IMG/VR virus record: IMGVR_UViG_3300036790_000395
Span: 1 to 61,963 of that record
DNA from: a virus
Lineage: Duplodnaviria; Caudoviricetes
Reading direction: 5' to 3' (one strand)
Length of the DNA: 61,963 nucleotides
The position numbers and the translations under genes are program-made. The notes under the pieces were generated by a model. It did no database searches. It saw only the letters and a program-made list of their open reading frames with translations, and was not told the DNA's origin. This document shows, one piece after another, positions 97-56,045 of the stretch. Position 1 is the first letter of the stretch. Each line of letters starts with the position of its first letter.

Positions 97-1833
97 AGCC
101 TGACGTAATCCTTGAGACCGAATCCACGAGAGCGCTGAATGTGTTTCAGGAACCCGTCGAATTCGCCCAAATAGATCCCACACGTACCCGTACCGTCGCG
201 CTCGGTAATGCTGTAGTTCCATATAAGCGCGCACCTCGGGGTAGAGTCCGAACCAGCGCTCAATAAAGTCATCACATTCTTCCTCCGTCCAAAACAGTTT
301 CGACAGCGCGAGCTGCGCTTGCAGCCCTATGGCGGTCGCGCCGTAACAGTTGCTTACTAACTTGCCTTCGACCGTGAAGCGTCGGCGCGGCCCTGCATTG
401 AGGATGTCGAAGACCGGCCCATAGGCTTCTTGGGCAGATACGGCCCACGCGGCACTCTTTGCAGAATTTCCTGCCAAGACACTCCATTCAACAAGTTGTC
501 GGTCGAGATCATCGCTTCCCGCCTGCAGGCCGAGCAGACTACCCGTACCGCACGATACCCTTTGTACCTCTCGATCTCCGTCGAAATAACCGTCAGCGTA
601 TCCAACGGGAGTGACTTCACGAGCCGTAACAGCAAGCCGAGATCTTTCGGCCAGGGCTTCAGCGAGCGGTATTCTTCTGCCGCTCTGTAGCCATACTTTA
701 TGGTCTGGAGTTGCCCAGATTCCATCGTGTTTAATTACCTCCTTGTATCCTTTGAAAATCACTCCATCGTGCGAGACGAATTCGACGCCGTCCCATAGTT
801 TCATCTGTCTGGTGACGTGCTCAATCGGCACTAAGCCCTGATCTGTGAGGACCCGTTGGCCGCCGAGTAGACATATCATAAAATTCACGTTCTTCGTCGG
901 CAGCCGTTTGTAGAGCGCGAAGTCCGCCCAATCGATCTTCTGCTCCGGCGTGAGTTTGCCTTGCTCTTTCAGCGAGGCCAGCAGCGCGTAGTGGTCGTAG
1001 TTGAGGCCGAACACGCGGCAGGCTGAATAGAGATGGATGTCCTTGTCTTCCTGGTACGCCGAGATCATCGAGTGCGCGCGGGCGCAATGCGCCAGATCGC
1101 GCAGCTCGATCTGTGAGAAGTCACTGCTAACCAGCCGCGTGCCGGGGGAGGCGAGGAACGCCATGCGGATGCGTCCGCCGAGTTCCGAACGGGCTGGTAT
1201 TTGTTGCAGGTTGGGATTTCTACTAGCGAATCTGCCCGTCTCGGTGCGGGTCATGGGGAATTCGGTATGCACGCGCCATGTAGACTCTACATGCGGCAGC
1301 TCGCACACTGGACACGAGCCGTCAGAGTTGCGAGGATGGTAGCGCGCCTTCTTGGGGAGGGAGTCAGCGAAGGCCGACTTGAGCTTCGACCGTTCGCGGT
1401 ACTCCAACACTTTATGGACAACAGGGTGATCGTCTCTGCAGAGTTCGAGCTGTTTCTTCCCGGTGCTGACAAGCCCATCCGCTGTAGTCTTCAGATCCCG
1501 ACCGTGGCCGACTTTCAACGCATCAAACAAAAGGGTCCGGATCTGTACGGCAGAGTTTGCGTTGAAAGCGACGGGGCCGAGTTCGCCCTCCACTTCAGCA
1601 GCCGCCTCGGCAAAAGCATGCAGGCGCTCGGCGGGCAAGTGACTAGCGATCTCACGCTCCAGCCCGGCCATTTGGGAACCGAGTTCGGCTGAGAAGTCCT
1701 GTAGGTAGGGGATGTCTATCGCGATGCCGTAGCGCTGCATCCTACGGACCATTGGGACGGGGAGCAGGTCCAAGCGCCGGATGTTTTCGAGATCGGGACG
1801 GCCTGTTAGTTTGACTCCTCCAAAGAGACTCAT
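1..1833 (-). CDS. polA: Family A DNA polymerase, polymerase domain only, intein-containing; continues across the junction to 61670 (~676 aa precursor)
   Basis: Manual translation from ATG 1833 (MSLFGG...): TETGRFASRNPNLQQIP, motif A SSDFSQIELR, motif B KRLPTKNVNFMI/intein/CYG, GNMPIQ. Probably absent from the ORF track because no stop occurs before position 1. Confidence 0.93.
   Translation of the reverse strand, partial: MSLFGGVKLTGRPDLENIRRLDLLPVPMVRRMQRYGIAIDIPYLQDFSAELGSQMAGLEREIASHLPAERLHAFAEAAAEVEGELGPVAFNANSAVQIRTLLFDALKVGHGRDLKTTADGLVSTGKKQLELCRDDHPVVHKVLEYRERSKLKSAFADSLPKKARYHPRNSDGSCPVCELPHVESTWRVHTEFPMTRTETGRFASRNPNLQQIPARSELGGRIRMAFLASPGTRLVSSDFSQIELRDLAHCARAHSMISAYQEDKDIHLYSACRVFGLNYDHYALLASLKEQGKLTPEQKIDWADFALYKRLPTKNVNFMICLLGGQRVLTDQGLVPIEHVTRQMKLWDGVEFVSHDGVIFKGYKEVIKHDGIWATPDHKVWLQSGRRIPLAEALAERSRLAVTAREVTPVGYADGYFDGDREVQRVSCGTGSLLGLQAGSDDLDRQLVEWSVLAGNSAKSAAWAVSAQEAYGPVFDILNAGPRRRFTVEGKLVSNCYGATAIGLQAQLALSKLFWTEEECDDFIERWFGLYPEVRAYMELQHYRARRYGYVWDLFGRIRRVPETHSALSWIRSQGLRQAGNMPIQPTSAGQTKLVMGALEEDFTNVYSDGA
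349..873 (-). mobile_element. Mini-intein (175 aa) in polymerase motif B
   Basis: In-frame insert: starts CLLGGQRVLTDQGLVPIEHV, block B ATPDHKVW, ends PVFDILNAGPRRRFTVEGKLVSN followed by +1 Cys; removal restores NFMI-CYG. Confidence 0.92.
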
Positions 1834-2339
1834 AACGACTCCCCAAAAACAAGCGAGCGCCAGTATGGCACTGAAAAAAGCCGGTAGAGACGCAGACCAG
1901 TCTCATAATCGGTCTCAATCACTTTGATGACATAGCCGACTTTGCGCAGTTCAGATACGCGGCTGGAATACTTCAGAGCGATGTCAGCCAACTCGCGCGT
2001 GTCGGTTATGCCCTGCTGCAAGCGCGCCAGTATCCGCGTGCTCTGTGCCGCTAGACGGTCTGCTTCAAACGGATGCACCGTAACGTTAACCGGAATGCTT
2101 CTGCCATCAGGCTTCCGCGCAGTCTCCAGTCTCTCGATCCAGCTCTCCTTTTCGGCATCGCGCAGCACCCGCCCAAGAGTGATCTCGTCTTCGCGCGTGT
2201 ACCCACTCGGAAAGTGAAGCCACACATCGGGGATCGTTAGGTACTGGTTAGCCTGCGCGGTCAGAAAGACCGCCTCCATTGCGGCGGCCTTCCATTCCTT
2301 CGTCGCCGATTTGTATGAGCGCAGGCCGTTCTCGCTCAT
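1830..2339 (-). CDS. Hypothetical protein with a winged-HTH-like segment
   Basis: TRELADIALKYSSRVSELRKVGYVI; stop overlaps the polymerase start. Confidence 0.6.
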   Translation of the reverse strand: MSENGLRSYKSATKEWKAAAMEAVFLTAQANQYLTIPDVWLHFPSGYTREDEITLGRVLRDAEKESWIERLETARKPDGRSIPVNVTVHPFEADRLAAQSTRILARLQQGITDTRELADIALKYSSRVSELRKVGYVIKVIETDYETGLRLYRLFSVPYWRSLVFGESL

Positions 2340-2560
2340 CGGTAGACCTTGCCGACCTCCACATTGGTGATGCCGCTGCCATTCGAAGTGTTCATCATCT
2401 GGTATTCATAAGCGTCGCGCCAGCGTTTGTAGTCGCGCTCCGTGTAATACTCTTTGACCAGCTTCTTGCCGCGTACCGTCAGCACGATCTGCCACACGAC
2501 GCGCGGGGGAGGCGTTATACCTTTCCTTTCCATCAGCGCTCTCCAAGATCGGTTCGGCAT
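2336..2560 (-). CDS. Hypothetical protein (start uncertain)
   Basis: Fills the operon gap; 4-nt overlap with the downstream gene. Confidence 0.5.
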   Translation of the reverse strand: MPNRSWRALMERKGITPPPRVVWQIVLTVRGKKLVKEYYTERDYKRWRDAYEYQMMNTSNGSGITNVEVGKVYR

Positions 2561-2574
2561 TGCGAGCGTTCCCA

Positions 2575-3057
2575 CTATTGCTGTTCCTCCGCGCGCTTCT
2601 CTTCCACCGGTAGTTCGCCTTTGCCGTTGCAGGTTTCGCAATCGACCGGATCGAAGCCTCTACCGCTGTTTTCCACGCTGCAGGTACAGTCGGCTTGCGG
2701 CTGCTCGCACGCGAAGCAGACGACGCCTTTACCTAAGCAGGAAGGGCAGGGACGGGCTTCTGCGTCCGGCAGCAGGAGCGGCTTATCCTCTTCCGGCGCT
2801 GGTTCCTCGTGCAGCAGGATGCCGATCAGCAGCCCGAAGCGGAAGTTCGCGAAGGCGGATAGCCGCATGGCGTTGCGTGTGGCAGTCAACGGATTGCCGG
2901 TGCGCGTCTGCGGGCTGTAGATGGCTTCGTGGATTAATCCGACGACGCGCTCCCGGATGGCTTCATTCGAGGAGGCGGCCTCCAGTTCTTCTATGTGCTC
3001 TTTGCCCCACGTTTGATACTTGACGGGCAAGGATTCAGCGATCTCTTGTAAGTTCAT
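2575..3057 (-). CDS. Protein with DnaJ-type zinc-finger repeats
   Basis: CPSCLGKG and CETCNGKG (CxxCxGxG twice). Confidence 0.65.
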   Translation of the reverse strand: MNLQEIAESLPVKYQTWGKEHIEELEAASSNEAIRERVVGLIHEAIYSPQTRTGNPLTATRNAMRLSAFANFRFGLLIGILLHEEPAPEEDKPLLLPDAEARPCPSCLGKGVVCFACEQPQADCTCSVENSGRGFDPVDCETCNGKGELPVEEKRAEEQQ

Positions 3058-4412
3058 GTGTCACGGTCCTCATCAGCTATTTCGAAGAAGCGATCACGCC
3101 TCCTTCGCTCCAACTCGACCGCCGTTTGGCCGGTCCAGTCGGCATCTCCGCAGGCGTAGGTAACGGCCTTCGCGAGCGGGGCGTTGGCAATGCCCAAAAT
3201 CGGGTAGCGCCCGATCCTGGCTTCGATATGAGCGGCGGCGTGATGGTTCGCGTCGTCACTCCAGAATTCGTCGAGCCGCTCCCACGGGTCGTAGTCGGAT
3301 GACTTATCGGTGTGCTGCAGCAGGCGGTTGATTAGCTGTTCGAGCGGACCCTTCTTGACCGTCTCGCGGATCTTGGTTTTAAGGCGTACTACGTCGATCA
3401 GCGAGAGGTCCGCGCGGGCGATATCGAGCGCTTCGACCAGCCAGCAGACGAGCGCTTCGATGGAATACGGGCGCACGACATCATCCCATGAGGTCATCGT
3501 GAACCCAAATAGTCGGTAGACCAAGGGTTTTAAGCCCTGCGGGAGATTACCGAGATGGAAGGCTTCTTGGAGGGTGTCGCGGAAACGCGGCGGATGAATG
3601 CCCATCTTCGCGAGCACATCGAGATCATGGACGGCAAAATGCAAGACCGCTTCGAAGTCCCATAAGTCGCCGAAGAAATGATTGAGCGTCTCTAGCGGAT
3701 CTTCATGTGTGGCGCGAATCAGACGAGCGCTGCCGGGCGCGATGCTGAACTGCACGCTCCAGGGCACGCCGCCGTGGTCTTCCGTGTCGATGGATAAGAG
3801 GGAGGTATCAGCGGAGCGCAGGTAGGCGCTTACTTCGTCTGGTGTGTCGGCAATTTTGTAGTCGGTCGGGTACGGCTTCTTGTCTCGTGTAGACTCTACA
3901 CGGCGTTTGTTCAGTTGCCCCCAATCTTCGAGCAACTGCGTCATCCAACGCGATTCGTGCAGGCCCAATGCCGGGTGATACATGGGCACGATCCAGCCCC
4001 GGTAATCGTACAGCTCGCCCCACTGCGGTATGCCGTGGTGCATGTCGAGCTTGATGGAGGGAACGAGGCGGCAGGCCGAGCCGCCCATCAGGATGATTAG
4101 AGAGGGATCTGTTCTTTGTATCTCTTTAGGGAGGTGATGAGCCGAGCAACAATCGATCTCGCGAGGCGTAGGCGTTCTATTCGCATCGGCCCAACACAGC
4201 ACAGTATTGGTAATGCGCACCTCAGAACGCGACAAGCCAGCCAGAGGAAGATAAGTTGCATTAAGTTCTTCACCGGTCTTGCCTATGAAGACTCGACCGT
4301 ACTTGTTTTCGTTACCGCCAGGGCGTTCGCCGATGATCAGGACGGGCGCGGGCGAGGGGCCATCTGGAGGCAGCGGGCGATAGCGGCGCGGGCAGACTTC
4401 ACACGGGATCAT
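3054..4412 (-). CDS. Family-4 uracil-DNA glycosylase-like domain fused to a 3'-5' exonuclease (N-terminal half of a split SPO1-like polymerase)
   Basis: UDG motifs CEVCP, IIGERPG, FIGKTG, TNTVLC, MYHPA; exonuclease motifs SIDTE, HFAVHDL, YACGDAD. Confidence 0.85.
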   Translation of the reverse strand: MIPCEVCPRRYRPLPPDGPSPAPVLIIGERPGGNENKYGRVFIGKTGEELNATYLPLAGLSRSEVRITNTVLCWADANRTPTPREIDCCSAHHLPKEIQRTDPSLIILMGGSACRLVPSIKLDMHHGIPQWGELYDYRGWIVPMYHPALGLHESRWMTQLLEDWGQLNKRRVESTRDKKPYPTDYKIADTPDEVSAYLRSADTSLLSIDTEDHGGVPWSVQFSIAPGSARLIRATHEDPLETLNHFFGDLWDFEAVLHFAVHDLDVLAKMGIHPPRFRDTLQEAFHLGNLPQGLKPLVYRLFGFTMTSWDDVVRPYSIEALVCWLVEALDIARADLSLIDVVRLKTKIRETVKKGPLEQLINRLLQHTDKSSDYDPWERLDEFWSDDANHHAAAHIEARIGRYPILGIANAPLAKAVTYACGDADWTGQTAVELERRRRDRFFEIADEDRDT

Positions 4413-6026: not shown

Positions 6027-6027
6027 G

Positions 6028-6651
6028 TCACAATCTGAAGGATTCGAACTTCGTTACTTGAAACCGGCCAAACGTAGGCCGGAAGTCGCCGACGCCGCAG
6101 AGCTTACCGGAGTACTGAATGCAGTCGTTTAACTGCTGCGGCGAGATGTACTCAGGCAGCAAAACCTGCACGAGCACCTTCACCTTCCAGCCCGCCATCA
6201 ATGCCGGTCGCTGCCGAGTGATGCCGTTACGCTGCACCATCACGCGGCGCTGGTCGAGGTAATCCCAGTTCTTCTTGTCGATGCCGAGCGAACACAGTTC
6301 GTCGATCACGACGATGCCCGCCTTATATAGATCCGCAGCCGACTTGCGCGGCGAGCGAGGATCTTGTCTGAATTTCGCGGCTCCAATCATCGCCATGCGG
6401 AAGTGTTCTCCAGGGATGCAAAGTTCCCCTCGGCCATTCCGATAGACGTATGACTCTACGTCGTCTTCTTTCTTCGCCTTGCTGCCTTTGGCGGCTTTGC
6501 TCTTCGCTTCAACCGCCTCACAGGACCAACGATGGTAGAGGAACGGCGCGGTGCCGATCACCTCGATCTCTGCAGCGTAGGGCTGCTCGAACGAGATGAT
6601 TTTGTTCGCATCATTCGATACGGGTTCAATTGCATTAAGAGTTGCGCTCAT
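6028..6651 (-). CDS. Stand-alone Cas7/RAMP-like protein
   Basis: N-terminal IEVIGTAPFLYH strand, LCIPGEHFRMAMIGAA, QRPAL..WKV, C-terminal Gly-rich loop SGKLCGVGDFRPTFGRFQV, matching the RAMP motif order. Confidence 0.78.
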   Translation of the reverse strand: MSATLNAIEPVSNDANKIISFEQPYAAEIEVIGTAPFLYHRWSCEAVEAKSKAAKGSKAKKEDDVESYVYRNGRGELCIPGEHFRMAMIGAAKFRQDPRSPRKSAADLYKAGIVVIDELCSLGIDKKNWDYLDQRRVMVQRNGITRQRPALMAGWKVKVLVQVLLPEYISPQQLNDCIQYSGKLCGVGDFRPTFGRFQVTKFESFRL

Positions 6652-7409
6652 CGTATTTCAGCCTTTCTGTTATGGAGAAGTTCAACAACTTCTTTGGCGA
6701 TGGTCTTTCCAATACCAGGAACAGTTCGCCAATCTTGTTCGGTTGCCGATACCATCTCGGCAACGCTCTTAAATCTCTTGCCCACGTCCCATGCGCGGCG
6801 GTCGATACCGGGCAACTGCGCCGCGACCTTCTCGACCACGCCCGGCTCGCGCGAACGGAACATCACTTTGCCGGGCTGCTCGGCGGCTGCCGGGTTGCGC
6901 GTGTAGAGCTGGTCGTGCGAATGGTGCGAGTCGAATGGCTTCTGCCACCAGTGATAACGGGAGGCGTAGAGCGCGGCGGTCTCGGCGGTGCCTGCCGAGC
7001 GCAGGATGATCACTCGGCCCATCACTTCCAAAGAGGAGAGGTAGCTGTCGAGTTGGCGGAAATTGACGCCGCGCCCGCGCGAGAACATGGATCGCCACTG
7101 ACCCTCGAACACTTCGATGCCGCCCGTCCGGTCGGGCCGCCAGAGACCTTCGACGAGCAGGTAGACGTAATCGTAGGAGTCCCACATGCCGTGCAGTTGA
7201 TGGCCGGATAACCGGCGCGAGGTCATGGAGGTGATGAGGTCCGGCAGGCGCTTGCGCTCGATGCCGACCATGATCGGTTTGTTGCCGGGGCCGGAGCCTT
7301 CGAACGAGCAGTCGCCGAAGTCGAGGTGAGCTACTTCAATGGACAGGTCGTAGATCGCTAAGCAGCGACGGAGAGCGGTGTCTTCGCGGTCGTCAAGTAC
7401 AAGGCACAC
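6648..7409 (-). CDS. ERCC4/XPF-family nuclease with C-terminal helix-hairpin-helix
   Basis: LDDRE, LDFGDC, GIERKRLPDL, LLVEG, VPGIGKTIA. Confidence 0.85.
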   Translation of the reverse strand: MCLVLDDREDTALRRCLAIYDLSIEVAHLDFGDCSFEGSGPGNKPIMVGIERKRLPDLITSMTSRRLSGHQLHGMWDSYDYVYLLVEGLWRPDRTGGIEVFEGQWRSMFSRGRGVNFRQLDSYLSSLEVMGRVIILRSAGTAETAALYASRYHWWQKPFDSHHSHDQLYTRNPAAAEQPGKVMFRSREPGVVEKVAAQLPGIDRRAWDVGKRFKSVAEMVSATEQDWRTVPGIGKTIAKEVVELLHNRKAEIR

Positions 7410-42654: not shown

Positions 42655-42669
42655 CCGTGTAGACTCTAC

Positions 42670-44757: not shown

Positions 44758-44776
44758 CGACTGATAAGGAGAAAGC

Positions 44777-45928: not shown

Positions 45929-45954
45929 GCGGAAAGGAGAACAAGGAGAAAATC

Positions 45955-46590
45955 ATGCCTGGAATCACTGGATTTCCGAACCCTTCATTCAAGCTCATCA
46001 GCGGCTATCTCAACGGCGAAAACCTATCGGCCTTGGGCGTTGCGGCCCCTGCTTCGTCCGGGATGCTCGTATCGACTTACGGCGGCTTCTTGGGCGGCAA
46101 GTGGGCGCTCTCTGCCGACGATGCGCTCAAGATGTCGAACACCACGACAGGGACGCTTTACGGCGGCCTCTATCAGTGCGTCAAGACCAGCGCCACGGCG
46201 CTCGCCAACCCGTCGCGCGGTCGGCTAGTGTTTTGGGACACGACGGCAGCCGAAGACACTTACCAAGTCTGTCAGGACGAGACGCAGAACGGCGGACTGC
46301 CCGAGTTTGCCGGAGTGCTGCTCAACACGGTAACGCCCGGCAATTACACCTGGATTCAGATTGCAGGCCGGGCCACGCTGCAGCTACGCGCATCGATCAC
46401 ATCTGCGACGCGCTTCATCGGCTGGTCGGGTGCAGGCTCGGGTGTCGATAACGCTACCGCAGACGGCATCGCAGCCAATGCTAGCTTTACTCCTGCGTTG
46501 ATTACCGGCTTGCTCGGTTTGGGCGAAGCGGTAGCCGCAAACGGCGCACTCGCTATCGTGAACCTGCGTAATCTGATCTTGCGTCAATAA
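45955..46590 (+). CDS. Capsid decoration/cement-like protein
   Basis: Follows the capsid gene; YQCVK...AGVLL...GNYTWIQIAG. Confidence 0.6.
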   Translation: MPGITGFPNPSFKLISGYLNGENLSALGVAAPASSGMLVSTYGGFLGGKWALSADDALKMSNTTTGTLYGGLYQCVKTSATALANPSRGRLVFWDTTAAEDTYQVCQDETQNGGLPEFAGVLLNTVTPGNYTWIQIAGRATLQLRASITSATRFIGWSGAGSGVDNATADGIAANASFTPALITGLLGLGEAVAANGALAIVNLRNLILRQ

Positions 46591-46599
46591 GGAGTATCG

Positions 46600-46953
46600 A
46601 TGGCATACGATGGCAGCTATCCCGCACCTCCCGGTAATAAGCCGGTCTCGATTGTTGACGTAGCAGGCCCGTCGAGCTACACGCAGATCACGCTCTCAAC
46701 CGGCGCTGCGCCAAGCGGCGGGCAGGCAGTCAGCGCTCGACACTTTGGTCTGACGGCGCTCGAACGTATCGAGGCGGGCCGCTCAGACGACGGCACTTAT
46801 CAAATCGTCGCGTATCTGACGCCCTTCAACAAGAACGGCACCTCGCCCGGTGCCGTGCTGCAGTGGATCGTTGCATCCACCGGGGCGCAGGCAGCAGCGA
46901 ACGCGAATCTATCGGCGCGCACCGTCCGGCTGTACGCGCAGGGCGCTTACTAA
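46600..46953 (+). CDS. Virion structural protein
   Basis: AAGGAG Shine-Dalgarno; head-module position. Confidence 0.6.
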   Translation: MAYDGSYPAPPGNKPVSIVDVAGPSSYTQITLSTGAAPSGGQAVSARHFGLTALERIEAGRSDDGTYQIVAYLTPFNKNGTSPGAVLQWIVASTGAQAAANANLSARTVRLYAQGAY

Positions 46954-46967
46954 AAAAAGGAGACAAC

Positions 46968-47111
46968 ATGCGGCGGAATGGCATCGGACACATGCAGAAT
47001 AAGAACCTGTCGTCTCGACGAACACTCGAACGGAACGGCAGAGGGGTGCGCGGCCCGGCTCGCGGCAAGATGGGCCACGGTCGCGGCGGTCGGGTAAAAC
47101 GGGGCAGATAA
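46968..47111 (+). CDS. Arg/Gly-rich small basic protein
   Basis: AAAGGAG Shine-Dalgarno; MRRNGIG...GRGGRVKRGR. Confidence 0.55.
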   Translation: MRRNGIGHMQNKNLSSRRTLERNGRGVRGPARGKMGHGRGGRVKRGR

Positions 47112-47154
47112 GGCCCCGTGTAGAGTCTACACGGAGTAACGGAAAGGAGCGCGG

Positions 47155-48192
47155 GTGCCACTGCAGAACCTAGTCGGCGAGCTTTTGGGCGATTTCCCGC
47201 GCTTTCCGCCGTTGTATGCGCAGAGCGTCATCAACCGGGCTTGGACGCGGATACGCGATATCCGCCTTTGGAGCTGGCAGGTCGTACCGGATGCGCAGAT
47301 CTTCGCGCCGGATCTCATCCAGGTAGGAACTGTCTCGACAACCTCGTTCTCAACCACTATCACGGCGAACTCGGCGGCGGCGGCAGCTTTGAATGCGGCA
47401 GCGGCCTATCCGCCGATCTTTGGAATGGTAGGAGTCGGAAGACAGATCCGTATCGGCGTGGGCCAGCAGACGGGCGTCTATGCGTCGAATGGCCCCTACT
47501 ATCACATCCTCAATTGGGACGGCACTTCGGTGCTCACTATCGACAGGCCGTTCGGCGAGGGTACTGTAACAGGTGTCGGATTCCAGGTGTTCAAAGCGGT
47601 CTACGCCGCGCCGTCGAATCCGGCTACCGGGCTGCCGACGCCAAGCGGCGCGTACATCAAGTTGTTCTCACTGACAAACAAGAACAACGGGTCCAACATT
47701 CCGCCGAATCGGCTCAACATCTCGCACGAGTGGCTGAACCGGCACGATCCGCAGCGGTCGTCTTCCGGCGATCCGACGCTCGCGGCCAATTACGGCACGG
47801 CATTGTTCGAGCTGTACCCGTACCCGGTCGCGGCGGCGACCTATTATGTGGACTATTACAACCGCTGGCCGGATCTGTCGCCGACGCAAGATCTGCCGCA
47901 GGTGCCGTATGGCCTGCAGGTGTGCATGATGGATCTCGCGAAGTCGTTTGCCTGCCAGTGGGCGGCAGCGAATGCCGCGACCTTTCCCGAGCTGCAGCAG
48001 ACCAACTGGATCGCTACGCAGTCGGTGTACCGGCAGGATTACGCGGACGGTCTGAAGCAGTGTCTCAAGCAGGATGACGAGATGATGCCGCAACTGCCGT
48101 TCCTGACGCGCGGATTCCTCGGAATGCAGGCGTTGCCTCCTGGCGGTGAGTGGCTGCAGAGTCACGATATCGCCAATCCGTATATGAGTTGA
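47155..48192 (+). CDS. Head-tail adaptor-like protein
   Basis: INRAWTRI...WSW, ELYPYP motifs; position. Confidence 0.6.
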   Translation: MPLQNLVGELLGDFPRFPPLYAQSVINRAWTRIRDIRLWSWQVVPDAQIFAPDLIQVGTVSTTSFSTTITANSAAAAALNAAAAYPPIFGMVGVGRQIRIGVGQQTGVYASNGPYYHILNWDGTSVLTIDRPFGEGTVTGVGFQVFKAVYAAPSNPATGLPTPSGAYIKLFSLTNKNNGSNIPPNRLNISHEWLNRHDPQRSSSGDPTLAANYGTALFELYPYPVAAATYYVDYYNRWPDLSPTQDLPQVPYGLQVCMMDLAKSFACQWAAANAATFPELQQTNWIATQSVYRQDYADGLKQCLKQDDEMMPQLPFLTRGFLGMQALPPGGEWLQSHDIANPYMS

Positions 48193-48194
48193 GT

Positions 48195-48341
48195 ATGCCT
48201 ATCAATCGTAGATCGCAAGCGAGACGCGGCTATCTCCAACGCGGAGCAGCCCGCAAATTCGATGTCGCCAAACATATGGGCGCGACAGTCGAAACAGAAG
48301 CCTCCGAGCTGAAGAAGAAGCGCGGCGGCAAGAAACGTTAG
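48195..48341 (+). CDS. Small basic protein
   Basis: MPINRRSQARRGY...KKKRGGKKR. Confidence 0.5.
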   Translation: MPINRRSQARRGYLQRGAARKFDVAKHMGATVETEASELKKKRGGKKR

Positions 48342-48357
48342 AAAGGAGAAATGATTT

Positions 48358-48552
48358 ATGGCAAATGGTGACGCCAAAGTTGCAGGACGGCTCGGGCCGC
48401 TGCGCTCGCCGATGGCTGATAACGTGATCACGCGGGGGCCTTTGAATCCCCCGATTGGCGCGAATACGACCATCCCCGGCACGGCCCCGAAAGCTGCACC
48501 GATCCGCAGCCCGTTGCAAGGCCAACCCACTAAGAATTGGAAGAACAAGTAA
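48358..48552 (+). CDS. Small Pro-rich protein
   Basis: AAAGGAG Shine-Dalgarno. Confidence 0.55.
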   Translation: MANGDAKVAGRLGPLRSPMADNVITRGPLNPPIGANTTIPGTAPKAAPIRSPLQGQPTKNWKNK

Positions 48553-48577
48553 CCTCTAACTCTATAAAGCGGCTCAA

Positions 48578-48615
48578 GGGGAGCGGGAGGCAGTGCTTCC
48601 CTCTCCCCATTTTTT
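48578..48615 (+). terminator. Intrinsic terminator
   Basis: GGGGAGCGGGAG...CTTCCCTCTCCCC-ATTTTTT. Confidence 0.65.
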
Positions 48616-48619
48616 CGTT

Positions 48620-48778
48620 ATGATCCTACTCATTCTTATCGTTCTGTTGTTTATGATCTTCGGCTCAGCACCCATCTACCCGTACTCGCGTGGTTGGGGC
48701 ATGGCTCCGTCCGGTGTGTTCGGATTCATCATGCTGGTGCTTTTGCTTCTATTGGTCTTCGGATACATCCCGCGTTAG
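48620..48778 (+). CDS. DUF3309-like membrane protein
   Basis: LILIVLL...PIYPYSRGWGMAPSGVFG...LLLLLVFG. Confidence 0.7.
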   Translation: MILLILIVLLFMIFGSAPIYPYSRGWGMAPSGVFGFIMLVLLLLLVFGYIPR

Positions 48779-48788
48779 CCCGCTCACC

Positions 48789-49838
48789 ATGCTTGAATTC
48801 ATGGATGGGTTCGACCACTACACCGGCAATACCAACATTGCGCGCAAGTGGGACACCACGAGCGGCGGTTCCGGGACAGACTTTCCTGCAGGCCGCTTTG
48901 GGGGAAACTGCTTCCAGTTCGGGCCGGGGGGCAGCGGTCCGAGCTTGACGCAAGGACAGCTCGCCTCGGTCGCAACGCGCACGGTCGGGTTCGCCTGCAA
49001 ACTAGGGTCCATTGTAGAAGGCTGGATATTCTTCTCGTTCCTGGACGCGGGCAATAATCAGGTAGACTTACGCCTCCACACGACCGGCGCGATCTACGTC
49101 ACGCGGAACGGGGCCACGCTCGCCACTACCTCACACGTCATTCCAACCGGGCTGTGGTGCTATATCGAGTTTCAGGCGACCATCGGCACGGCAAACGGCG
49201 CTTTCAGCTTGAAGGTGTGGGGGCTTGGCGCGAGCGATGGTGTTTGGCTGACCGCCTCCGGCGTCAACACGCAGAACACAATTAACGCCTCGATGGATGG
49301 TGTTTCGTGGAACGGCGACGACTCGAACCCGACCATCTACATCGACGATGTGTATGTTCTGAACTCGTCCGGCGCGGCGAACAATAACTTCTTGGGCGAG
49401 TCGCGCATCCTAATGAACCTGCCCAATTCGGATGATACGGCTACCCCTGGCACGAATCTACAATGGACACCGAACAGCGGCAGCAACCATTACTCTTGTG
49501 TAGACGACACGCCGACCCCGGATGACGACACGAGCTACGTGTCGAGCGCTACCGCTGGTCAGATCGACACCTACAAATACCCGGCTCTCTCGCCGACCGG
49601 CGCGATTGCGGGGGTGCAGAACGTACTCTGTGCCCGCAAGGACGATGCCGGGGTGCGCTCGATCAGCTCCGAATATCGGTCGGCAGCCGGGGCCAATTAT
49701 GATGGCGCAATTGCCTTCTCGCCCAACTCTTCGTATCTGATGTTCCGGCAGATCTACGAGAACGATCCGGCGACTAATGGCCCTTGGTTCCTGGCGAATC
49801 TAAACGGCGCTGAATTCGGCATCAAGTGCGTTGCATAG
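48789..49838 (+). CDS. Tail-associated protein with LamG/ConA-like domain
   Basis: FMDGFDHY, WCYIEF, YIDDVYV...FLG, AEFG. Confidence 0.7.
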   Translation: MLEFMDGFDHYTGNTNIARKWDTTSGGSGTDFPAGRFGGNCFQFGPGGSGPSLTQGQLASVATRTVGFACKLGSIVEGWIFFSFLDAGNNQVDLRLHTTGAIYVTRNGATLATTSHVIPTGLWCYIEFQATIGTANGAFSLKVWGLGASDGVWLTASGVNTQNTINASMDGVSWNGDDSNPTIYIDDVYVLNSSGAANNNFLGESRILMNLPNSDDTATPGTNLQWTPNSGSNHYSCVDDTPTPDDDTSYVSSATAGQIDTYKYPALSPTGAIAGVQNVLCARKDDAGVRSISSEYRSAAGANYDGAIAFSPNSSYLMFRQIYENDPATNGPWFLANLNGAEFGIKCVA

Positions 49839-49841
49839 GAG

Positions 49842-51368
49842 ATGGCGAACCGGCTTACACAGTTCGCAGTGGAGAACCTGCAAGCGGGCGGGAATCCCCG
49901 CGCGCGCGTCACGCAGGTTGCCTATGAAGTCTTAGAGCGGCTGAGCGTACCGCCCCCGCCGTCGCCGCCAGCCCCGGCATCGTCGGTCGCGCAGACGGCC
50001 CCGCTCGTGCCCGGCTATACGCAACTGACGCAGGCGGGCGCGTTGACGATCTTGGGGCGGCGGTTAGGTGATCCGAACTTCATCTATTGGTCGCAGGGCG
50101 AACTCCGGTTGTATATCGCCGAGGCGCTGCGCACGTGGCAAGCGTTAACAAGCTGGTATCGCGCGCGCTCCACCATCAGCAGCGCCAGCAGCCAACAGTG
50201 GTACGACTTGGCGAGCGTCGATAGCGGGGCTTATGGTTACCATCTGGCCGACACGGATCTGCTGGCGGTGATGCTCTATCATCTGCTCGAAGCGCAACTG
50301 TCCGGTACGACATGGGCGGGCACGGCGCAGTTTAGCTTAGCGCTCTGCCAGGGCGCGATTCAGAACCGCATCAACAAATTCCTGGCCGACAGCGGCGCGG
50401 TCGTGTATCGTGTGCTGCAACCATCTGGGACACTGACCGGCGACGGGCGGGTGCTGATCCAGCCTACCTTCATCGACGTGCGGCGGATGGTATGGACACC
50501 GGGCAGCGGAGCAAGCAGCGTATTGTGGCGCGAAGACGAATGGGGGATGAGCGCGTTCCTGATGAACTGGCGCGCGCCGGGCACGCCGCAGGTGTATTCG
50601 CAAGCAGCCGCGCCTCCAGCGAACGTGCAGCTCGCGCCGCCTCCCGCGAGTGCCGGAACACTCGATATGCTGCTCGTCCCGACCGGACCGCACCTGAACA
50701 TACCGGGCGGCTCGACGGTCTTGCCGGTACCGGACGATTTCACATGGGGGATCAAGTGGGGCGCGTTGGCCGATCTGCTGTCCTCCGATGGCGTCGCGCA
50801 AGATGAGGCGCGCGCGGCCTATTGCGAGCAGCGTTATCAGCAGTGCGTGCAACTAGCAAAGATCTTCCCGGCAGTGCTGCAGGTCTCGATCAGCGGCGCG
50901 CCGGTTTGGATCGGCAGCGTATGGGAATTGGACGCCTACTCAACCGGCTGGCAGAATGCGGCGGCTGGTACGCCGGGTTTTGCCGGATTAGCAGGCCGCA
51001 ACCTGTTAGCGCTCTCGCCGCCGCCGTCCGGGTCGAACGCGGTGACGCTCGATCTGGTGCAGAACATCCCGGTGCCGGGAACGGATACCGATTACCTGCA
51101 GGTGCCGGGCGACGTGCTGCCGGTGCTGATCGATTACATCATCCACCTAGCGAGCTTCAAGATGGGCGGCCAGGAGTTCGCGCAGACGCAACTGCAGATG
51201 ACGAATTTCCTTCTGACAGCGGGCGCGTACAACAACCGGCTGCGGCAGCTTGCGACTTACAACGATGCGCTGCGCTCGTCGGCGCTGCGGGACTACGATC
51301 AGAACCCGAGGCTCGATAACCCGCTGCTGACGGCCTATTCGCCGAGTGGAGCTGGCAATGGCAAATAA
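49842..51368 (+). CDS. Tail adaptor-like protein
   Basis: RRLGDP...YWSQGELRLYIAEALR; internally repeated LxPPP modules. Confidence 0.65.
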   Translation: MANRLTQFAVENLQAGGNPRARVTQVAYEVLERLSVPPPPSPPAPASSVAQTAPLVPGYTQLTQAGALTILGRRLGDPNFIYWSQGELRLYIAEALRTWQALTSWYRARSTISSASSQQWYDLASVDSGAYGYHLADTDLLAVMLYHLLEAQLSGTTWAGTAQFSLALCQGAIQNRINKFLADSGAVVYRVLQPSGTLTGDGRVLIQPTFIDVRRMVWTPGSGASSVLWREDEWGMSAFLMNWRAPGTPQVYSQAAAPPANVQLAPPPASAGTLDMLLVPTGPHLNIPGGSTVLPVPDDFTWGIKWGALADLLSSDGVAQDEARAAYCEQRYQQCVQLAKIFPAVLQVSISGAPVWIGSVWELDAYSTGWQNAAAGTPGFAGLAGRNLLALSPPPSGSNAVTLDLVQNIPVPGTDTDYLQVPGDVLPVLIDYIIHLASFKMGGQEFAQTQLQMTNFLLTAGAYNNRLRQLATYNDALRSSALRDYDQNPRLDNPLLTAYSPSGAGNGK

Positions 51369-54300
51369 AGACTGGTCGCGCAATCCGGGTAAAGGCAAGT
51401 TCGCTTATCTTGGCGTCGATCTGCACAACCCGCCCGATCTCATCCGCCAGGGCCGCGCGCCGTATCTGTTGAACGTATCGCCGAACGTCGCGCAAGGAGC
51501 GCTGCAGCCGCGCGCGGGTACAACGGCGGCGGGCACGACGGGCGTCAACAGCCCAATCCATAGTCTGAAGCGGGTTAATAATTCCGTGCCCGGCGCGTCG
51601 AATCCGTGGCTGCGGTTTGCAGGCGTGGGAGCGAGTCTCTATCGCGCTCTGGCAGGCGCGCCGACGACGTATAGCCTGCTGACGAACGGCTTCAGTGGCA
51701 ACCCCCTGTCGCTCATCCCATTCCGGCCTCCGCAGTCGCCCGAGACATGGCTGTATGCGTATGACAGCGCGCAGCAGAAGAAGTTCCGAACAGATGGCTC
51801 GACTATCCAGAATATCGGCATCCTACCGCCGACCTTAGCTCCAAGCGTGCGCCGTGGAGCGCCGCAGATGAACATCGTATTGGACGCAGGCGTGCCGACT
51901 GGATGGGTAGGCAGCGGTAGCGCGGCTAATCCGACGCTGCAGAACCGGCTGCCGTCCAGTGGTTGCACGGTGAGTCAGATCCTCTACGATGTCGGCTCGA
52001 CCGGCTGGTGCAACGTGGTGCCGAGCAACAGTGACGCTCTGATCGGGATTGGCTCGCGCTTCATCTTCAGCGGCTCTTCGGAGATCTCGACCGTATGGCA
52101 GACCTTCCCGGCGCTGAGCGGCACGACGGCAGCGGGAATCTTGTTCGATAGCGGCTCGACAGGCATGTGTACCGTCACGCCGACGACCGCGACGCAAGGG
52201 CTGCAGCGCAATCATCTGATCCAGGTTGGCGCGAACTGGACGCGCGTGCTGAGTGTCACCGAGGGGCCGGATGGGAGTTACAGCTTCCGCTGCTCGCTGG
52301 CAGGCACGGCGAGCACGGGTTCGGTTATCAACATCCCGTTCAGCTTCCGCTGCCTGCCGCTCGGGACACACGCGACTGGAGAGACGCTTACGAGTTATGC
52401 GTTGCAGTCAGCGTGTACGGCTGGCAACGGGCTGATCTCGAACAGCTCAATCGGCACGCTCGATCTGACGCAGCTTACCCCGGCGAATAGGCCGCTGACG
52501 GCAGACGATTACATGCATGTTTCTTTGCTGGTCGATAATCCGGCAAACGTGACAGAAGTACACATTTTGTTGGACGTGGACGAGACCACGAACGATTTCA
52601 ACCACAACTACTACTATTTCATCGTCCGGCAGAATGACTTCCAAGCGGCGGCGACCGGCGCGGCTGGCATCGTCAATACGAATCTGACGGCGCTGAGCAA
52701 CGCGCTCGCGAGCAACGATCTACCAGATAGCGGCGTGCCGAACGCGGCGCAGTCACCGTACCCGGCTGCGGCGTTGGGAACGTCGAGTCCGCCGTCGCCC
52801 GCGCAGTTGTCGCCGGGGAGCAGCCAATGGTTCGAGCTGGTGTGCAAGATCAACGATCTGACGCGCGTCGGAAGCGACTCGGCGACCGGCCTCAACAATG
52901 TGAAGGCTATCGGCGTACTCGTGATCGCGAGCGGCTCGTGCAACGTGAGCTTCGGTTCGTGGTGGGTCGAGGGCGGCTACGGCCCCGACTGCAACTACAA
53001 CAGCTACGGCAATCAGGGCCAACCGATCCTGTACCGCTATCGCTATCGTTCTAGTCTGACCGGCGCGATCTCGGACGTTTCGCCAGCGACCCGAAATGGC
53101 GATCTGACGATGCGCAATCCGCTGATCCCGTTCGTCACGGCTTCGCCCGACGCGCAGTGCGATCTGATCGACATCGAGCGCAATGGTGGAACGTTCGACA
53201 CATGGCATCGTTGCATGACGGTCGCGAACGTGACGAATGAATACGCGGATACGACCGAAGAGGAGGTCGCGGCTGCGGGTGATCCATTAGAGCTGCTGCA
53301 GTATGCGCCCTGGCCGGTGACGGATAAGCCGAGGTCGGGGGTGTGCAACATCACCGGCACGCATGTCGAATGGGTGTCGGGCGATCAGTTCAATATGAAC
53401 TGGATTCGAGGTGTAGAATTCATCGTCAATAACCAGACCTATACGCTGTACGCGCCGCCCACTTCCGACAGCGTGCTCGACACGGCAGAGAATATCGGTA
53501 CCTTCGCGAATGTCGCCTTCATCATCCCGGAAGCGACGATCTGCGGGCAGCCTTTACCCTATGCCTGCGGGCCGTTCGATGGGCGGATGTGGGCAACCGG
53601 CGATCCTTACAATCCGGGGCTGCTCTACTTCTCGAATCCGTACAACCCGGATTCGGCAAGCGACCAGGGCTATATCGAGGTCACTAGCCCGTCAGAACCG
53701 CTGCTGATGCCGGTCATTTACGAAGGCGCGGTGTACGTCTTCTCGGCGCAGGCAGTGTACCGTGTAGAGTCTACACCAGGGCAGGCGAACCCGTATGCGG
53801 CATATAAATTGGGCGCGATCCCAAGCGGATTGGCAGCCCCGTGGGCGGTGAATGCGGACGGGCCGCTGCTGGTATGGCTCGGCAGCGATGGAATCAATGG
53901 AATGGCGGCTAACGGCGCGGCGCAATCGCTTACGAAGGACGATTTGACGCCGCTATTCCCGATTGAGTCGAGGCCGGGGCTGCAGGTCGGCATCGCGGCC
54001 TATACTCTCAGCCCACCTGATTACACAGAGCAGCAGTGGTTGCGGTTGAGCTACGCCTATGGCATGTATTTCTTCGATTACATCGACATCGACGGCAATT
54101 ACAGCACCTTCACCTTCGACCCGGACTCGAAAGGTTGGGTGCCTTATCTGTACGCCACAGCAACGGTCGCGCTGCATTACGAAGAGGAAGGCATTGCGGA
54201 CCCATTTACTCTCTGCGGCAAGTCGGACGGCACGCTGTCGGTGATATCGGGCGCAGCCGACGATGAGGGCGCGGCGTTCTCCTGCGTGGTGGTGACGCCT

Positions 54301-54399
54301 GCCGACGATCAGGGCGAGACAAGAGCTAGAAAGCAGTACGGCGACATGATGCTCGACTATCAGACACAGACGGGCGAGGGCGGGGGCGGCGGCGGATGA
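51358..54399 (+). CDS. Tail nozzle/stabilisation-like protein
   Basis: ~1013 aa, beta-rich; LYFSNPYNP propeller-like segment; podovirus-like position. Confidence 0.6.
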   Translation: MANKDWSRNPGKGKFAYLGVDLHNPPDLIRQGRAPYLLNVSPNVAQGALQPRAGTTAAGTTGVNSPIHSLKRVNNSVPGASNPWLRFAGVGASLYRALAGAPTTYSLLTNGFSGNPLSLIPFRPPQSPETWLYAYDSAQQKKFRTDGSTIQNIGILPPTLAPSVRRGAPQMNIVLDAGVPTGWVGSGSAANPTLQNRLPSSGCTVSQILYDVGSTGWCNVVPSNSDALIGIGSRFIFSGSSEISTVWQTFPALSGTTAAGILFDSGSTGMCTVTPTTATQGLQRNHLIQVGANWTRVLSVTEGPDGSYSFRCSLAGTASTGSVINIPFSFRCLPLGTHATGETLTSYALQSACTAGNGLISNSSIGTLDLTQLTPANRPLTADDYMHVSLLVDNPANVTEVHILLDVDETTNDFNHNYYYFIVRQNDFQAAATGAAGIVNTNLTALSNALASNDLPDSGVPNAAQSPYPAAALGTSSPPSPAQLSPGSSQWFELVCKINDLTRVGSDSATGLNNVKAIGVLVIASGSCNVSFGSWWVEGGYGPDCNYNSYGNQGQPILYRYRYRSSLTGAISDVSPATRNGDLTMRNPLIPFVTASPDAQCDLIDIERNGGTFDTWHRCMTVANVTNEYADTTEEEVAAAGDPLELLQYAPWPVTDKPRSGVCNITGTHVEWVSGDQFNMNWIRGVEFIVNNQTYTLYAPPTSDSVLDTAENIGTFANVAFIIPEATICGQPLPYACGPFDGRMWATGDPYNPGLLYFSNPYNPDSASDQGYIEVTSPSEPLLMPVIYEGAVYVFSAQAVYRVESTPGQANPYAAYKLGAIPSGLAAPWAVNADGPLLVWLGSDGINGMAANGAAQSLTKDDLTPLFPIESRPGLQVGIAAYTLSPPDYTEQQWLRLSYAYGMYFFDYIDIDGNYSTFTFDPDSKGWVPYLYATATVALHYEEEGIADPFTLCGKSDGTLSVISGAADDEGAAFSCVVVTPADDQGETRARKQYGDMMLDYQTQTGEGGGGGG

Positions 54400-55247
54400 A
54401 CCTGAATATCTACTACGACAATCTGCTGCTCTCGTCCTCGACCTTCACCCCGGATGTCGAAGCGACGCGCACGCAGCAGTTCTACGATCTCGGACTGGAT
54501 AGCGTCTCGGCGCACCGCAATATCGGCGCGGTGATCACGTTCGCGAGCAACGAGCTGACGGTTCTATATGAGTGGCAGCCGAGCTTCATTCCCGAGCCGG
54601 AGGACACGATTGATCGCCCGACTGACTGGATGGACGCCGGAACGATCCACTACAAGTTCATCCACGGCTGCCGGATTCAGGCCGATACGGCGGGTGTCGC
54701 AAGGACCGTGCAGGTGCAGTATGACGGCGGAATCAACGGGCCGGTCTTGACGGTGAACCATGCCGGTGAGTTGGTTCTGCCGTACTCGTTCCCGCCGTTC
54801 AAGGCGAGATTGCTAAGGCTGGTGCCGACCGATCCGAACGAATGGCGGCTATGGGGCGTGCAATGGGAGTTCGACATCGAGCCGGACCCGGCTGATTATT
54901 GGGTTACGCAGACGACCAGCTTCGGGTTCGCGGGGTATGGACATATCCGGGATTTCGAATTGGCGTATGCAACGGTCAATGCGGGCGCGAACCTACTGAT
55001 GATCGTCGATGGAGTGTCGAACACGATAGCGGCGGCCCTGCCATCGACGGGAGGGAATGAGGTCAAGAGTTACTTCCCCGCGCCGCCGCTCAAGGGTAAA
55101 TTGTTTCAGTTGTATCTGACCGGCAATCAGGTGCAGTTGTACCTGAAGGACTGCGAATTCAGGATGAAGCAGTGGGGCGCGGACCAGTACGCGGTGCTGA
55201 AGCCGGTGGGCGATGAGAGCGTGACGAGCGGAGGCGCGAGATTGTAA
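54396..55247 (+). CDS. Tail protein
   Basis: ATGA overlap with the nozzle gene; beta-sandwich-like. Confidence 0.6.
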   Translation: MNLNIYYDNLLLSSSTFTPDVEATRTQQFYDLGLDSVSAHRNIGAVITFASNELTVLYEWQPSFIPEPEDTIDRPTDWMDAGTIHYKFIHGCRIQADTAGVARTVQVQYDGGINGPVLTVNHAGELVLPYSFPPFKARLLRLVPTDPNEWRLWGVQWEFDIEPDPADYWVTQTTSFGFAGYGHIRDFELAYATVNAGANLLMIVDGVSNTIAAALPSTGGNEVKSYFPAPPLKGKLFQLYLTGNQVQLYLKDCEFRMKQWGADQYAVLKPVGDESVTSGGARL

Positions 55248-55594
55248 TGGGGCGTGTTCGAACAGGCAATCCGACTTCGCTCGCGAATAACTCCAGCATT
55301 CCGCTGCAGATCCAGCGGGCGCTGCGCAAGACTGCGGTGAACGGGCGGCAAGAGCAGGAAGGCGCTCAGACTCAGAGCGCGCCTGATCAGAAGTTGAGCG
55401 TGGCAGAGATGCAGCGCGTGACGCAGTACGTGAGAGCGCAGTTGCAGGGCAGCGGCGCATTAGGCGCGCAGATTGGGCTAGCGGCCAACAAACCGGGCGG
55501 GCTGACGGTGCAGCAGGCGGGCTATCTGTATTGGGAATCGGACACCAATCACATGCGGGTGTGGAACGGCTCGACGTGGGGCACAGTCTCGTGA
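55247..55594 (+). CDS. Tail/fibre-associated protein
   Basis: GYLYWESDTNHMRVWNGSTW. Confidence 0.6.
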   Translation: MGRVRTGNPTSLANNSSIPLQIQRALRKTAVNGRQEQEGAQTQSAPDQKLSVAEMQRVTQYVRAQLQGSGALGAQIGLAANKPGGLTVQQAGYLYWESDTNHMRVWNGSTWGTVS

Positions 55595-55660
55595 CGAATT
55601 CAGCGGTTTTCTTCACGGAGGGACTAGCGGAGAGCGCGCGAAGAAAGGTGAAATAGAGAT

Positions 55661-55999
55661 ATGGCAGCAGATACACCAAGCGGTTACACGAGTGGAACGG
55701 TGAGCATCGCGGCTGGCACGGCGCTGCAGTTGGGGCCGCTGATTCAGCAGCAGGTAGACGCGAATGCGGCGATGGCGGCGCAGCTCATCTCTATACAGGC
55801 GGACGGCGCGAACACAACGCCGATCCTGATCGGGATGGACAAGAACGTCGGCAGCGGCTCGCCCGTGAAGTACGGGTTCGGCCTCGCGTCGGGCCAGGAC
55901 CGGAGCTATAGCGGCGCTGCCGCGAATCCGATCAGCATTGGGCGCTTCTACGTGTTCAGTAATGCGAATGCAGTACTGCACGTCGAGATCTTTCCGTAA
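55661..55999 (+). CDS. Small beta-rich virion protein
   Basis: ISIQADGANTTPILIG...GFGLASG. Confidence 0.6.
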   Translation: MAADTPSGYTSGTVSIAAGTALQLGPLIQQQVDANAAMAAQLISIQADGANTTPILIGMDKNVGSGSPVKYGFGLASGQDRSYSGAAANPISIGRFYVFSNANAVLHVEIFP

Positions 56000-56045
56000 G
56001 ACGATGAGACTCGTGTAGAGTCTACACGGGTAGGTGAAAGAGGGT

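Follow-up and report, generated by a model that had tools for sequence, protein, structure and literature searches.

Dispersed operator networks on mobile replicons are already known, among them the KorB-OB system of plasmid RK2, the stoperators of Cluster A mycobacteriophages and the four SopB sites of N15. RK2 carries twelve copies of the 13-bp TTTAGCSGCTAAA, the inverted-repeat (IR) sites of N15 are dispersed over its genome and affect phage genes, and stoperators are oriented with transcription and lie mostly in short intergenic gaps. In a further system, about 20 dispersed 13-bp matS sites, each with 5-bp inverted arms around a 3-bp spacer, mark one DNA domain of 800 kb; MatP, the protein of this system, is a ribbon-helix-helix protein of the host chromosome. 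Here we describe a network of the palindrome TGTAGASTCTACA in the genome of a tailed soil phage, the complete IMG/VR virus record IMGVR_UViG_3300036790_000395 (Duplodnaviria; Caudoviricetes; 61,963 bp, completeness rating 100%), which we analysed at its full length and call the window, or G000 when it is set beside its relatives. Our verdict is that its 19 exact copies form a dispersed operator network, KorB- or stoperator-like, and the copies are linked to an operon that encodes a small helix-turn-helix (HTH) protein and a ParB/KorB-type protein (Table 1).

The sites resemble matS in their arm/spacer architecture and in numbering about 20 dispersed copies, and differ in scale (62 kb here versus 800 kb); no MatP-like gene was seen here, no search having been aimed at one. 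As on RK2, a ParB-family protein with cytidine triphosphate (CTP)-binding motifs and an HTH domain occurs together with many dispersed copies of a short palindrome, both near promoters and far from them, on a ~60-kb mobile replicon; the operon that encodes the protein is preceded by a site and also contains a small HTH gene, and the operon sites of the phage family stand at varying distances from the promoter, as KorB operators do. The system differs from that of RK2 in its replicon, a tailed phage that has an integrase and in which no ParA/IncC gene was found; in having ~20 sites rather than ~12, mostly coding, evenly spaced and built on another half-site; in a small HTH protein that, in the searches made, is no homologue of KorA, the partner of KorB; and in a putative clamp that is known by its sequence and predicted fold, two relatives keeping ParB without the sites. 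With N15 it shares a phage-borne ParB-family protein and several separate inverted-repeat sites, but N15 has four sites, SopA (ParA) and a linear plasmid prophage, whereas here there are 19–26 sites, no ParA and an integrase gene. With the stoperators it shares tens of ~13-bp sites across a whole phage genome, but the site here is a perfect palindrome with a weak orientation bias at most, and 12 of 19 copies are intragenic. KorB can slide to promoters as far away as 1.5 kb, and its OB operators lie 4–10 bp or 45 to >1000 bp upstream of promoters (PMC11790492); the SopB sites of N15 are given as the inverted repeats IR1–4 (PMC7205306); and stoperators are described as asymmetric and bound by one monomeric phage repressor that silences the prophage (PMC9283540). 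VirB of the Shigella plasmid and BisD of ICEclc are ParB-fold proteins with no partition role that load at specific sites and influence transcription at a distance; the excerpted accounts present them as anti-silencers or activators at few sites and, in those excerpts, describe no genome-wide array of ~20 sites (PMC10770331, PMC12409273).

All 19 exact copies counted in the original prediction, which was made from the window's sequence and had likened them to KorB operators, are present at the places it gave, and none occurred in any of 100 dinucleotide-preserving shuffles of the genome. With up to two mismatches there are 21 sites (the 19 plus those at 25942 and 26363), compared with a shuffle mean of 0.36 and a maximum of 3. 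The proposed extension of the palindrome also holds: the consensus is c-C-(G/A)-TGTAGASTCTACA-(C/T)-G-g, in which the flanks continue the symmetry, and the form of the site specific to G000 is CGTGTAGA-S-TCTACACG. Twelve exact copies lie within genes, as had been stated, ten of them read as VEST or VDST and two (14548 and 20369) in the C-R-V-Y frame of CRVYT; the third reading frame of the palindrome contains TAG, and the intragenic copies use the other two. DNA outside open reading frames (ORFs) is enriched in sites (7 of 19, compared with ~15% non-coding DNA, P=0.016, on a crude ORF map used for placing the sites), and likewise in three relatives (G001, G003 and G004). The two copies said to supply the A of a start codon do so, at the ATGs at 38484 and 42670, and others stop 7–23 bp short of a start. 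The gaps between sites are more even than random, with a coefficient of variation (CV) of 0.58 in G000 (P=0.009) and 0.66 in G001 (P=0.036); with near-copies included, the CV in six genomes is 0.46–0.75, compared with ~0.9 expected, these genomes sharing ancestry and thus not being independent tests. The central base on the coding strand is G at 12 of the 17 assignable sites of G000 (12 G : 5 C) and at 14 of 18 in G001, a weak bias (~19 G : 8 C once orthologous duplicates are dropped). Read on the plus strand, it is C at the first seven sites of G000 (1279–24198) and G at nine of the 12 later ones (25568–56026), and G001 has a similar run of C over its first six sites.

Relatives came from terminase and ParB searches, and twelve were taken whole or as recorded fragments, making 13 with G000. 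The core pattern TGTAG-N3-CTACA has 4–21 copies in nine of the 13: G001 has 21, G000 20, G413 11, G416 10, and the 63-kb genomes G004 and G003 have 6 and 5–6, respectively; the fragments G414 (29 kb), G415 (34 kb) and G417 (27 kb) have 9, 6 and 4. G412 has a single copy, and G002, G005 and G411 have none. Control patterns (everted, N2-spaced, N4-spaced and reversed) gave no match in the same 13 apart from one. When up to two mismatches to the 13-mer are allowed, the counts are 26 in G001, 16 in G003, 13 in G413 and 8 in G004, with four relics in G412. Eight sites are orthologous between G000 and G001, in the polymerase, helicase, integrase, scaffold and tape-measure genes and at three gene starts; their motif bases are identical throughout (104 of 104), compared with 441 of 960 ungapped flank bases (46%), and G003 and G004 also keep the sites in the polymerase and tape-measure genes. 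The DNA itself is under selection at these sites, as the use of different reading frames had already been taken to mean. G416 keeps TGTAG/CTACA in all ten of its copies and varies the 3-bp centre, which is GC-rich (CGC/GCG in four, GCA in two, and others); at least eight of the ten centres are without GANTC, so that GANTC/GAGTC is not the conserved element. Because the arms are kept while the centre varies, the inverted pentamer pair is the family-wide determinant. That centre is the only variation seen, and the co-variation of motif and HTH among related phages, suggested earlier as a test, could not be shown. In gene order, G001 differs from G000 in that the block from the P-loop/winged-helix gene to the tail genes (14973–61059 in G000; L023–L026) is inverted in order and orientation, between helicase and polymerase.

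In the wider set of viral contigs, the exact 17-mer has three loci, and the 14-mer mostly gives single chance matches among the matches listed. Loci with at least two sites, again among the matches listed, are the known relatives, G425 and G421. The G425 sites are an artefact, a coding tandem repeat with VDST inside a PEPEP repeat. G421 (L132; 56 kb, about half a genome) has four TGTAG-N3-CTACA sites with four different centres at 36–55 kb, in a locus seen without a protein match to the window, and it may belong to another phage lineage that uses the site.

The motif is tied to the small-HTH/parB operon, upstream of which the original prediction had correctly placed the copy at 18517. A site, intact or decayed, lies upstream of this operon in all seven motif-bearing genomes that have it (five intact or core, two decayed) and in neither of the two motif-less genomes that have it (G002 and G412). 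The intact sites lie at −130 in G000, −49 in G004 and −401 in G003, the G416 site is ~150 bp ahead of the operon, and the G417 site precedes the start of the HTH ORF by ~100 bp; the sites are at varying distance upstream of recognisable −35/−10 pairs. Decayed copies stand at the equivalent place in G001 (TGTAGAGTCTAgc) and G413 (CCGTGTAGAaATCACACGG). Since G003 and G004 hold only about six core copies each, this placement is unlikely to be due to chance. The operon module is present in all six complete motif-bearing genomes, and both genomes without it (G005 and G411) are also without the motif. Two local features of this region are that the operon palindrome of G416 (L095, 53970–54200) is flanked by tandem arrays of GGACTGT (~7) and GGAAGTC(A/G) (~9), and that G004 and G412 have a ~30-bp perfect inverted repeat upstream of the operon. 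The Uma2-family gene at the operon's end has no counterpart in ten relatives except for a weak match (29% over 136 amino acids, aa) in the motif-less G411, and therefore falls outside the conserved system.

By its motifs and predicted fold, the 347-aa product of 16909–17952 is a genuine ParB/KorB-type protein, as had been proposed, with CTP-binding motifs and an HTH domain both present. It matches Pfam ParB_N at 3.6e-9 and scores 22.4 bits for HTH_ParB, slightly below the cut-off of 22.6, and its alignments to Spo0J (E 8e-11), KorB (8qa8, 1.8e-8, residues 9–227) and Noc run across the CTP-binding and HTH domains. Box II (GRRRFAAA) and box III (ENMHRR) align with those of Spo0J and KorB, and residues G80, R83, A86, N120 and R123 are invariant in seven ParB homologues. 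The predicted model has a mean pLDDT (predicted local distance difference test) of 70.7, with helices at 149–182, and its nearest folds are CDP/CTP-bound ParB, Noc and KorB (8qa9_A, target-normalised TM-score 0.63).

We favour, at about an even chance, the explanation that the palindromes are docking sites for a dimeric DNA-binding protein from the small-HTH/parB operon, with ParB the favoured binder. A symmetric dimer on duplex DNA best accounts for the combination of the inverted pentamers, the fixed 3-bp spacer, the absence of a required orientation, the letter-perfect conservation and the autoregulatory position. ParB is preferred to the small HTH protein because the exactness, number and even spacing of the sites and their distance from promoters match ParB/KorB loading sites; the even spacing would also suit a factor of limited reach per site. 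On this explanation, the ParB/KorB-type protein would load at each palindrome as a CTP-dependent clamp and slide a kilobase or so from its loading site, so that ~20 sites, one per ~3 kb, would cover the whole 62-kb genome. The clamp would repress its own operon and the genes whose starts abut a site, much as KorB does on RK2, and the small HTH protein would either assist as a co-factor or itself be what binds the operators. The earlier suggestion that either ParB or one of the XRE-type proteins marks the whole genome thus stands in part: the motif is tied to the ParB operon, and the second XRE-type protein (19245–19577) is excluded as the family-wide binder, its sole homologue being in the motif-less G411 and none being found in G001, G003, G004 or G413. 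The P-loop/winged-helix protein that adjoins the operon, a third candidate, has a Walker A motif (GPPGCGKS) and a winged helix and is not ParA-like. Its homologues (29–38% identity) occur in eight of 401 Terriglobia genomes (L216–L238), on large chromosomal contigs; within 20–40 kb of them there is no other gene of this phage and no TGTAG-N3-CTACA, so that no prophage relatives were gained in this way.

Results from the phage family and, further below, from host genomes weigh against ParB as the binder. Scans of 62 window ORFs with Pfam and/or PHROGs, ~20 small ORFs being left out, gave no ParA/CbiA-type match, in agreement with the earlier statement that parB has no parA partner; the system is thus not a classical partition system. 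Ordinary promoter operators are not usually intragenic, as 12 of the 19 copies are here. G000 and G001 have an identical motif but ParB proteins of just 38% identity, and neither the recognition helix of ParB nor that of the small HTH protein has a residue by which genomes with and without the motif can be told apart. The genes for ParB, the small HTH protein and the P-loop/winged-helix protein are all intact in G002 and G412, which have, respectively, no copy and one copy plus three two-mismatch relics. In a tree of eight concatenated replication-module proteins, the motif-less G002 is sister to G000 and G001, and G412 is sister to G004; nested in this way among motif-bearing genomes, they imply that the network was lost at least twice with the candidate genes retained. 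No replacement palindrome is enriched in G002 or G005 (a scan made without G411 and G412), and k-mer counts gave no dispersed repeat in G002, G005, G411 or G412. No window gene has a presence and absence that match the motif, apart from off-frame shadows of conserved genes. The repeated ACGGTTCACTC of G005 was rejected as a replacement network, being a clustered iteron array with a 36-bp period and not dispersed. That array (L040, 21174–21753) has ten direct copies, mostly at 36-bp spacing, in a relative with a different replication module, and is a probable origin.

It is unlikely, in our view, that the small HTH_3 protein (17959–18399) is the sole binder, in which case the sites would form a stoperator-like repressor network that blocks initiation or elongation and ParB would have another role. 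The usual operator of an XRE-type dimer is a 13–17-bp palindrome with a central base pair, and the size of the palindrome fits this. The protein is encoded by the first gene of the operon that bears the upstream site and is conserved with parB in nine genomes, G000 and G001, both with the strict 13-mer, agree fully in its helix GITKSHL-KVL-G, and several sites abut start codons. However, the gene is retained in the motif-less G002 and G412, and in their recognition helices the motif-bearing G003, G004, G416 and G417 are no closer to G000 and G001 than the motif-less genomes are. No dimerisation domain is evident in the protein, in which a basic, low-complexity N-terminus precedes a C-terminal HTH; sites that are exact, evenly spaced and for the most part within genes are atypical of XRE operators; and stoperators themselves are asymmetric and monomer-bound (PMC9283540). 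A predicted complex of ParB residues 1–240 with residues 66–146 of the small HTH protein scored 0.09 (mark 0.32), which carries no weight either way.

The motif was also followed into host genomes, where the original prediction had allowed that it might be as dense as in the phage, a host iterated palindrome. It is not dense there. Across one genome for each of 185,579 species the 17-mer has 15 loci, twelve of them in metagenome-assembled genomes (MAGs) of Acidobacteriota, and the phage host is probably a member of this phylum. Five Acidobacteriota MAGs (5–8.6 Mb) have 8, 2, 1, 4 and 1 copies of the 13-mer, all in islands, and a scan of 400 other Terriglobia genomes gave no 15-mer. The exact and one-mismatch copies of G006 all fall within three contig-end regions, and two-mismatch copies are rarer than those of a control pattern (34 versus 94). 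A host iterated palindrome of the REP (repetitive extragenic palindromic) kind, or a conserved host regulon, is thereby rejected. Ligase, DinB-family and nuclease genes come after the site on islands, which brought an acidobacterial LexA/SOS box into consideration; it is rejected by the absence of the motif from those 400 genomes and its confinement to islands in G006. The literature consulted yielded no description of the motif strings or of an acidobacterial LexA motif, dispersed phage ParB sites not having been searched for generally beyond N15.

The island copies themselves tell further against a binder encoded by the phage. On integrative islands of Acidobacteriota MAGs, CCGTGTAGASTCTACACGG precedes HNH_2 genes and ATP-dependent ligase genes; it is 7, 27 or ~50 bp upstream of the ligase gene at four loci in three MAGs, and the ligases are 66–80% identical. 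No protein is shared between the islands and the window, nor do island proteins occur in any of the 13 phage genomes. The best ParB matches in the five MAGs are of the chromosomal type (26–27% identity), so that a phage-type ParB is missing, as is a homologue of the small HTH protein. The island sites are thus orphans, on which a phage-borne factor may act in trans unless the true binder is another factor. The island loci are L057–L058 (G006:C55:1–29600), L059, L062 and L063, one of which also has a DinB_2-family gene and an ExoVII-like fragment; the HNH gene of G007 and the ligase gene of G009 survive as remnants only. On the G006 island there are five sites in 12 kb, together with a RES/Xre toxin-antitoxin pair and an integrase that adjoins tRNA-Lys.

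These findings raise the alternative, to which we give a small probability, that the binder is encoded by the host or by another resident mobile element and that phages and islands have both recruited its site, for silencing, stress coupling or nucleoid organisation. In its favour are the identical 17–19-bp site kept upstream of the HNH_2 and ligase genes, the integrative nature of one island with its own integrase and RES/Xre pair, the lack of any protein common to islands and phage, the loss of the network in two phage lineages that kept three candidate DNA-binding genes, and the lack of a phage gene that tracks the motif. Against it, the 15-mer is absent from the other Terriglobia and the G006 copies are confined to contig-end regions; the motif is thus no general feature of hosts, which makes a conserved regulator of host origin unlikely. 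The repeated placement of the site upstream of the small-HTH/parB operon fits autoregulation better, and a Pfam scan of 40 island ORFs gave no candidate regulator.

Very improbable is a role of the sites as substrates, for nicking or cutting at a GAGTC/GACTC centre, GANTC methylation, block-shuffling recombination or the formation of RNA hairpins: the G000 centre contains GANTC, G001 has its inversion, on host islands the site is followed by genes for an HNH nuclease and a DNA ligase, some sites lie at accessory-gene boundaries (25568–28033) and a 6–7-bp stem with a 3-nt loop could form, but G416 varies the centre and keeps both arms in 10 of 10 copies, the 62 scanned window ORFs include no methyltransferase, HNH nuclease or ligase, the weak orientation bias counts against a strand-specific RNA or nick signal, Rfam gives no match, and the sites in essential genes have long been kept in the same place and are thus not cassette junctions.

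A bolder form of the favoured explanation joins phage and islands, and we regard it as doubtful. A ParA-less ParB/KorB-type CTP clamp would coat and silence the whole phage genome from 10–26 evenly spaced loading sites, while unrelated host islands would have put the same loading site ahead of HNH-nuclease and DNA-ligase genes and so wired them to the phage regulator, to be silenced by a resident prophage or switched at phage arrival.

If the favoured explanation is confirmed, what is new is a tailed-phage family in which a ParA-less ParB is served by ~20 evenly spaced, positionally conserved and mostly intragenic palindromes. The cases of long-range gene control by sliding clamps of the ParB family that have been elucidated to date (KorB, VirB, BisD) come from plasmids and integrative elements, and viruses would be added to these. 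Two small proteins and one 19-bp site would make a compact, sequence-defined system, testable in vitro throughout. The sites also provide a clear case of overlapping constraint at the DNA and protein levels, a 13-bp signal being letter-perfect inside essential genes (polymerase, helicase, integrase, tape measure) among phages with proteins of only 45–80% identity. The island sites ahead of nuclease and ligase genes hint at regulatory cross-talk among the mobile elements of Acidobacteriota in soil, a group whose phages have been little studied.

Table 1. Palindrome copies and selected genes of the window (61,963 bp); copies are exact unless marked otherwise
Feature	Position	Strand	Context	Copies in relatives
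Palindrome	1279–1291		In DNA polymerase gene	Orthologous in G001, G004; one mismatch in G003
Palindrome	3888–3900		In N-terminal DNA polymerase ORF	
Palindrome	10560–10572		In 171-aa ORF 10338–10853	
Palindrome	14548–14560		In DinG/XPD-like helicase gene	Orthologous in G001
Palindrome	18517–18529		119–130 bp upstream of small-HTH/ParB operon (TTG start at 18399)	
Palindrome	20369–20381		In tyrosine integrase gene	Orthologous in G001
Palindrome	24186–24198		In ~0.85-kb non-coding region, boundary of leftward and rightward gene blocks	
Palindrome	25568–25580		3′ end of ORF 25314–25586, directly ahead of next ATG	
Palindrome	25819–25831		In ORF 25529–25972 (zinc-ribbon-like)	
One-mismatch copy TGTAGGCTCTACA	25942–25954		15 bp ahead of ATG at 25969	
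One-mismatch copy TGTAGACTCTCCA	26363–26375		Directly past stop of ORF 25969–26355	
Palindrome	28033–28045		Between convergent gene ends 27730–28026 (+) and 28051–30144 (−)	
Palindrome	30655–30667		In ORF 30523–30948	
Palindrome	31470–31482		In ORF 31413–31712	
Palindrome	34900–34912		In ORF 34538–35074	
Palindrome	38472–38484		Last A is A of ATG, KTSC-domain gene 38484–38714	Orthologous in G001
Palindrome	42658–42670		Last A is A of ATG, ORF 42670–42885	
Palindrome	44139–44151		In scaffold-like gene 43744–44757	Orthologous in G001
Palindrome	47119–47131		23 bp upstream of ORF 47155–48192	Orthologous in G001
Palindrome	53763–53775		In 1017-aa ORF 51346–54399 (presumed tape measure)	Orthologous in G001, G004; one-base difference in G003
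Palindrome	56014–56026		7 bp upstream of ORF 56034–56729	Orthologous in G001
DNA polymerase, family A, two ORFs	3054–4412 (N-terminal); 1833 leftwards through base 1, then 61963–61670	minus		
P-loop + C-terminal winged-helix protein, 395 aa	14973–16160	minus	Adjoins operon; third DNA-binding candidate	
Uma2-family nuclease gene	16373–16912	minus	Operon end	
ParB/KorB-type protein, 347 aa	16909–17952	minus	ParB_N with box II and box III, then HTH domain; favoured candidate binder	
Small HTH_3 protein, 146 aa	17959–18399	minus	Arg-rich N-terminus, HTH at residues 80–135; operon's first gene; candidate binder or partner	
Second XRE-type HTH protein, 110 aa	19245–19577	minus	Beside integrase	
Tyrosine integrase	19587–20606		Beside second XRE gene	

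The record is circularly permuted, the family-A DNA polymerase ORF leaving at the left end and resuming at the right end. Between the two polymerase ORFs, small ORFs at 1830–2339 and 2575–3057 have no counterpart in ten relatives and no family match, and may be an inserted selfish element. From 21 to 35 kb there are small genes of unknown function, and the terminase-to-tail block runs on the plus strand from 36 kb. A ~0.85-kb non-coding stretch (23975–24827) between divergent gene blocks contains, besides the palindrome at 24186, short GC-rich repeats and T-runs, and may be a control region, an origin or attP.

Rfam and transfer RNA scans of the window gave no match, nor did a megablast of 36000–56000 against a phage collection. 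Seven soil-metagenome runs contain parts of the G000 phage as Logan contigs, with no RNA run listed; these contigs are short and of low depth and provide neither ends nor informative variants at palindrome sites. An apparent joint from 56000 to 47117 in them is explained by the repeated motif itself. Genes for replication and recombination form a minus-strand block, mainly at 1–16.2 kb, that comprises the polymerase, an ERCC4/XPF-type nuclease, a Sak4-like protein and the DinG/XPD-like helicase; the nuclease (6648–7409), of the ERCC4/XPF-Mus81 type with a helix-hairpin-helix tail, is kept in every relative that has this replication module.

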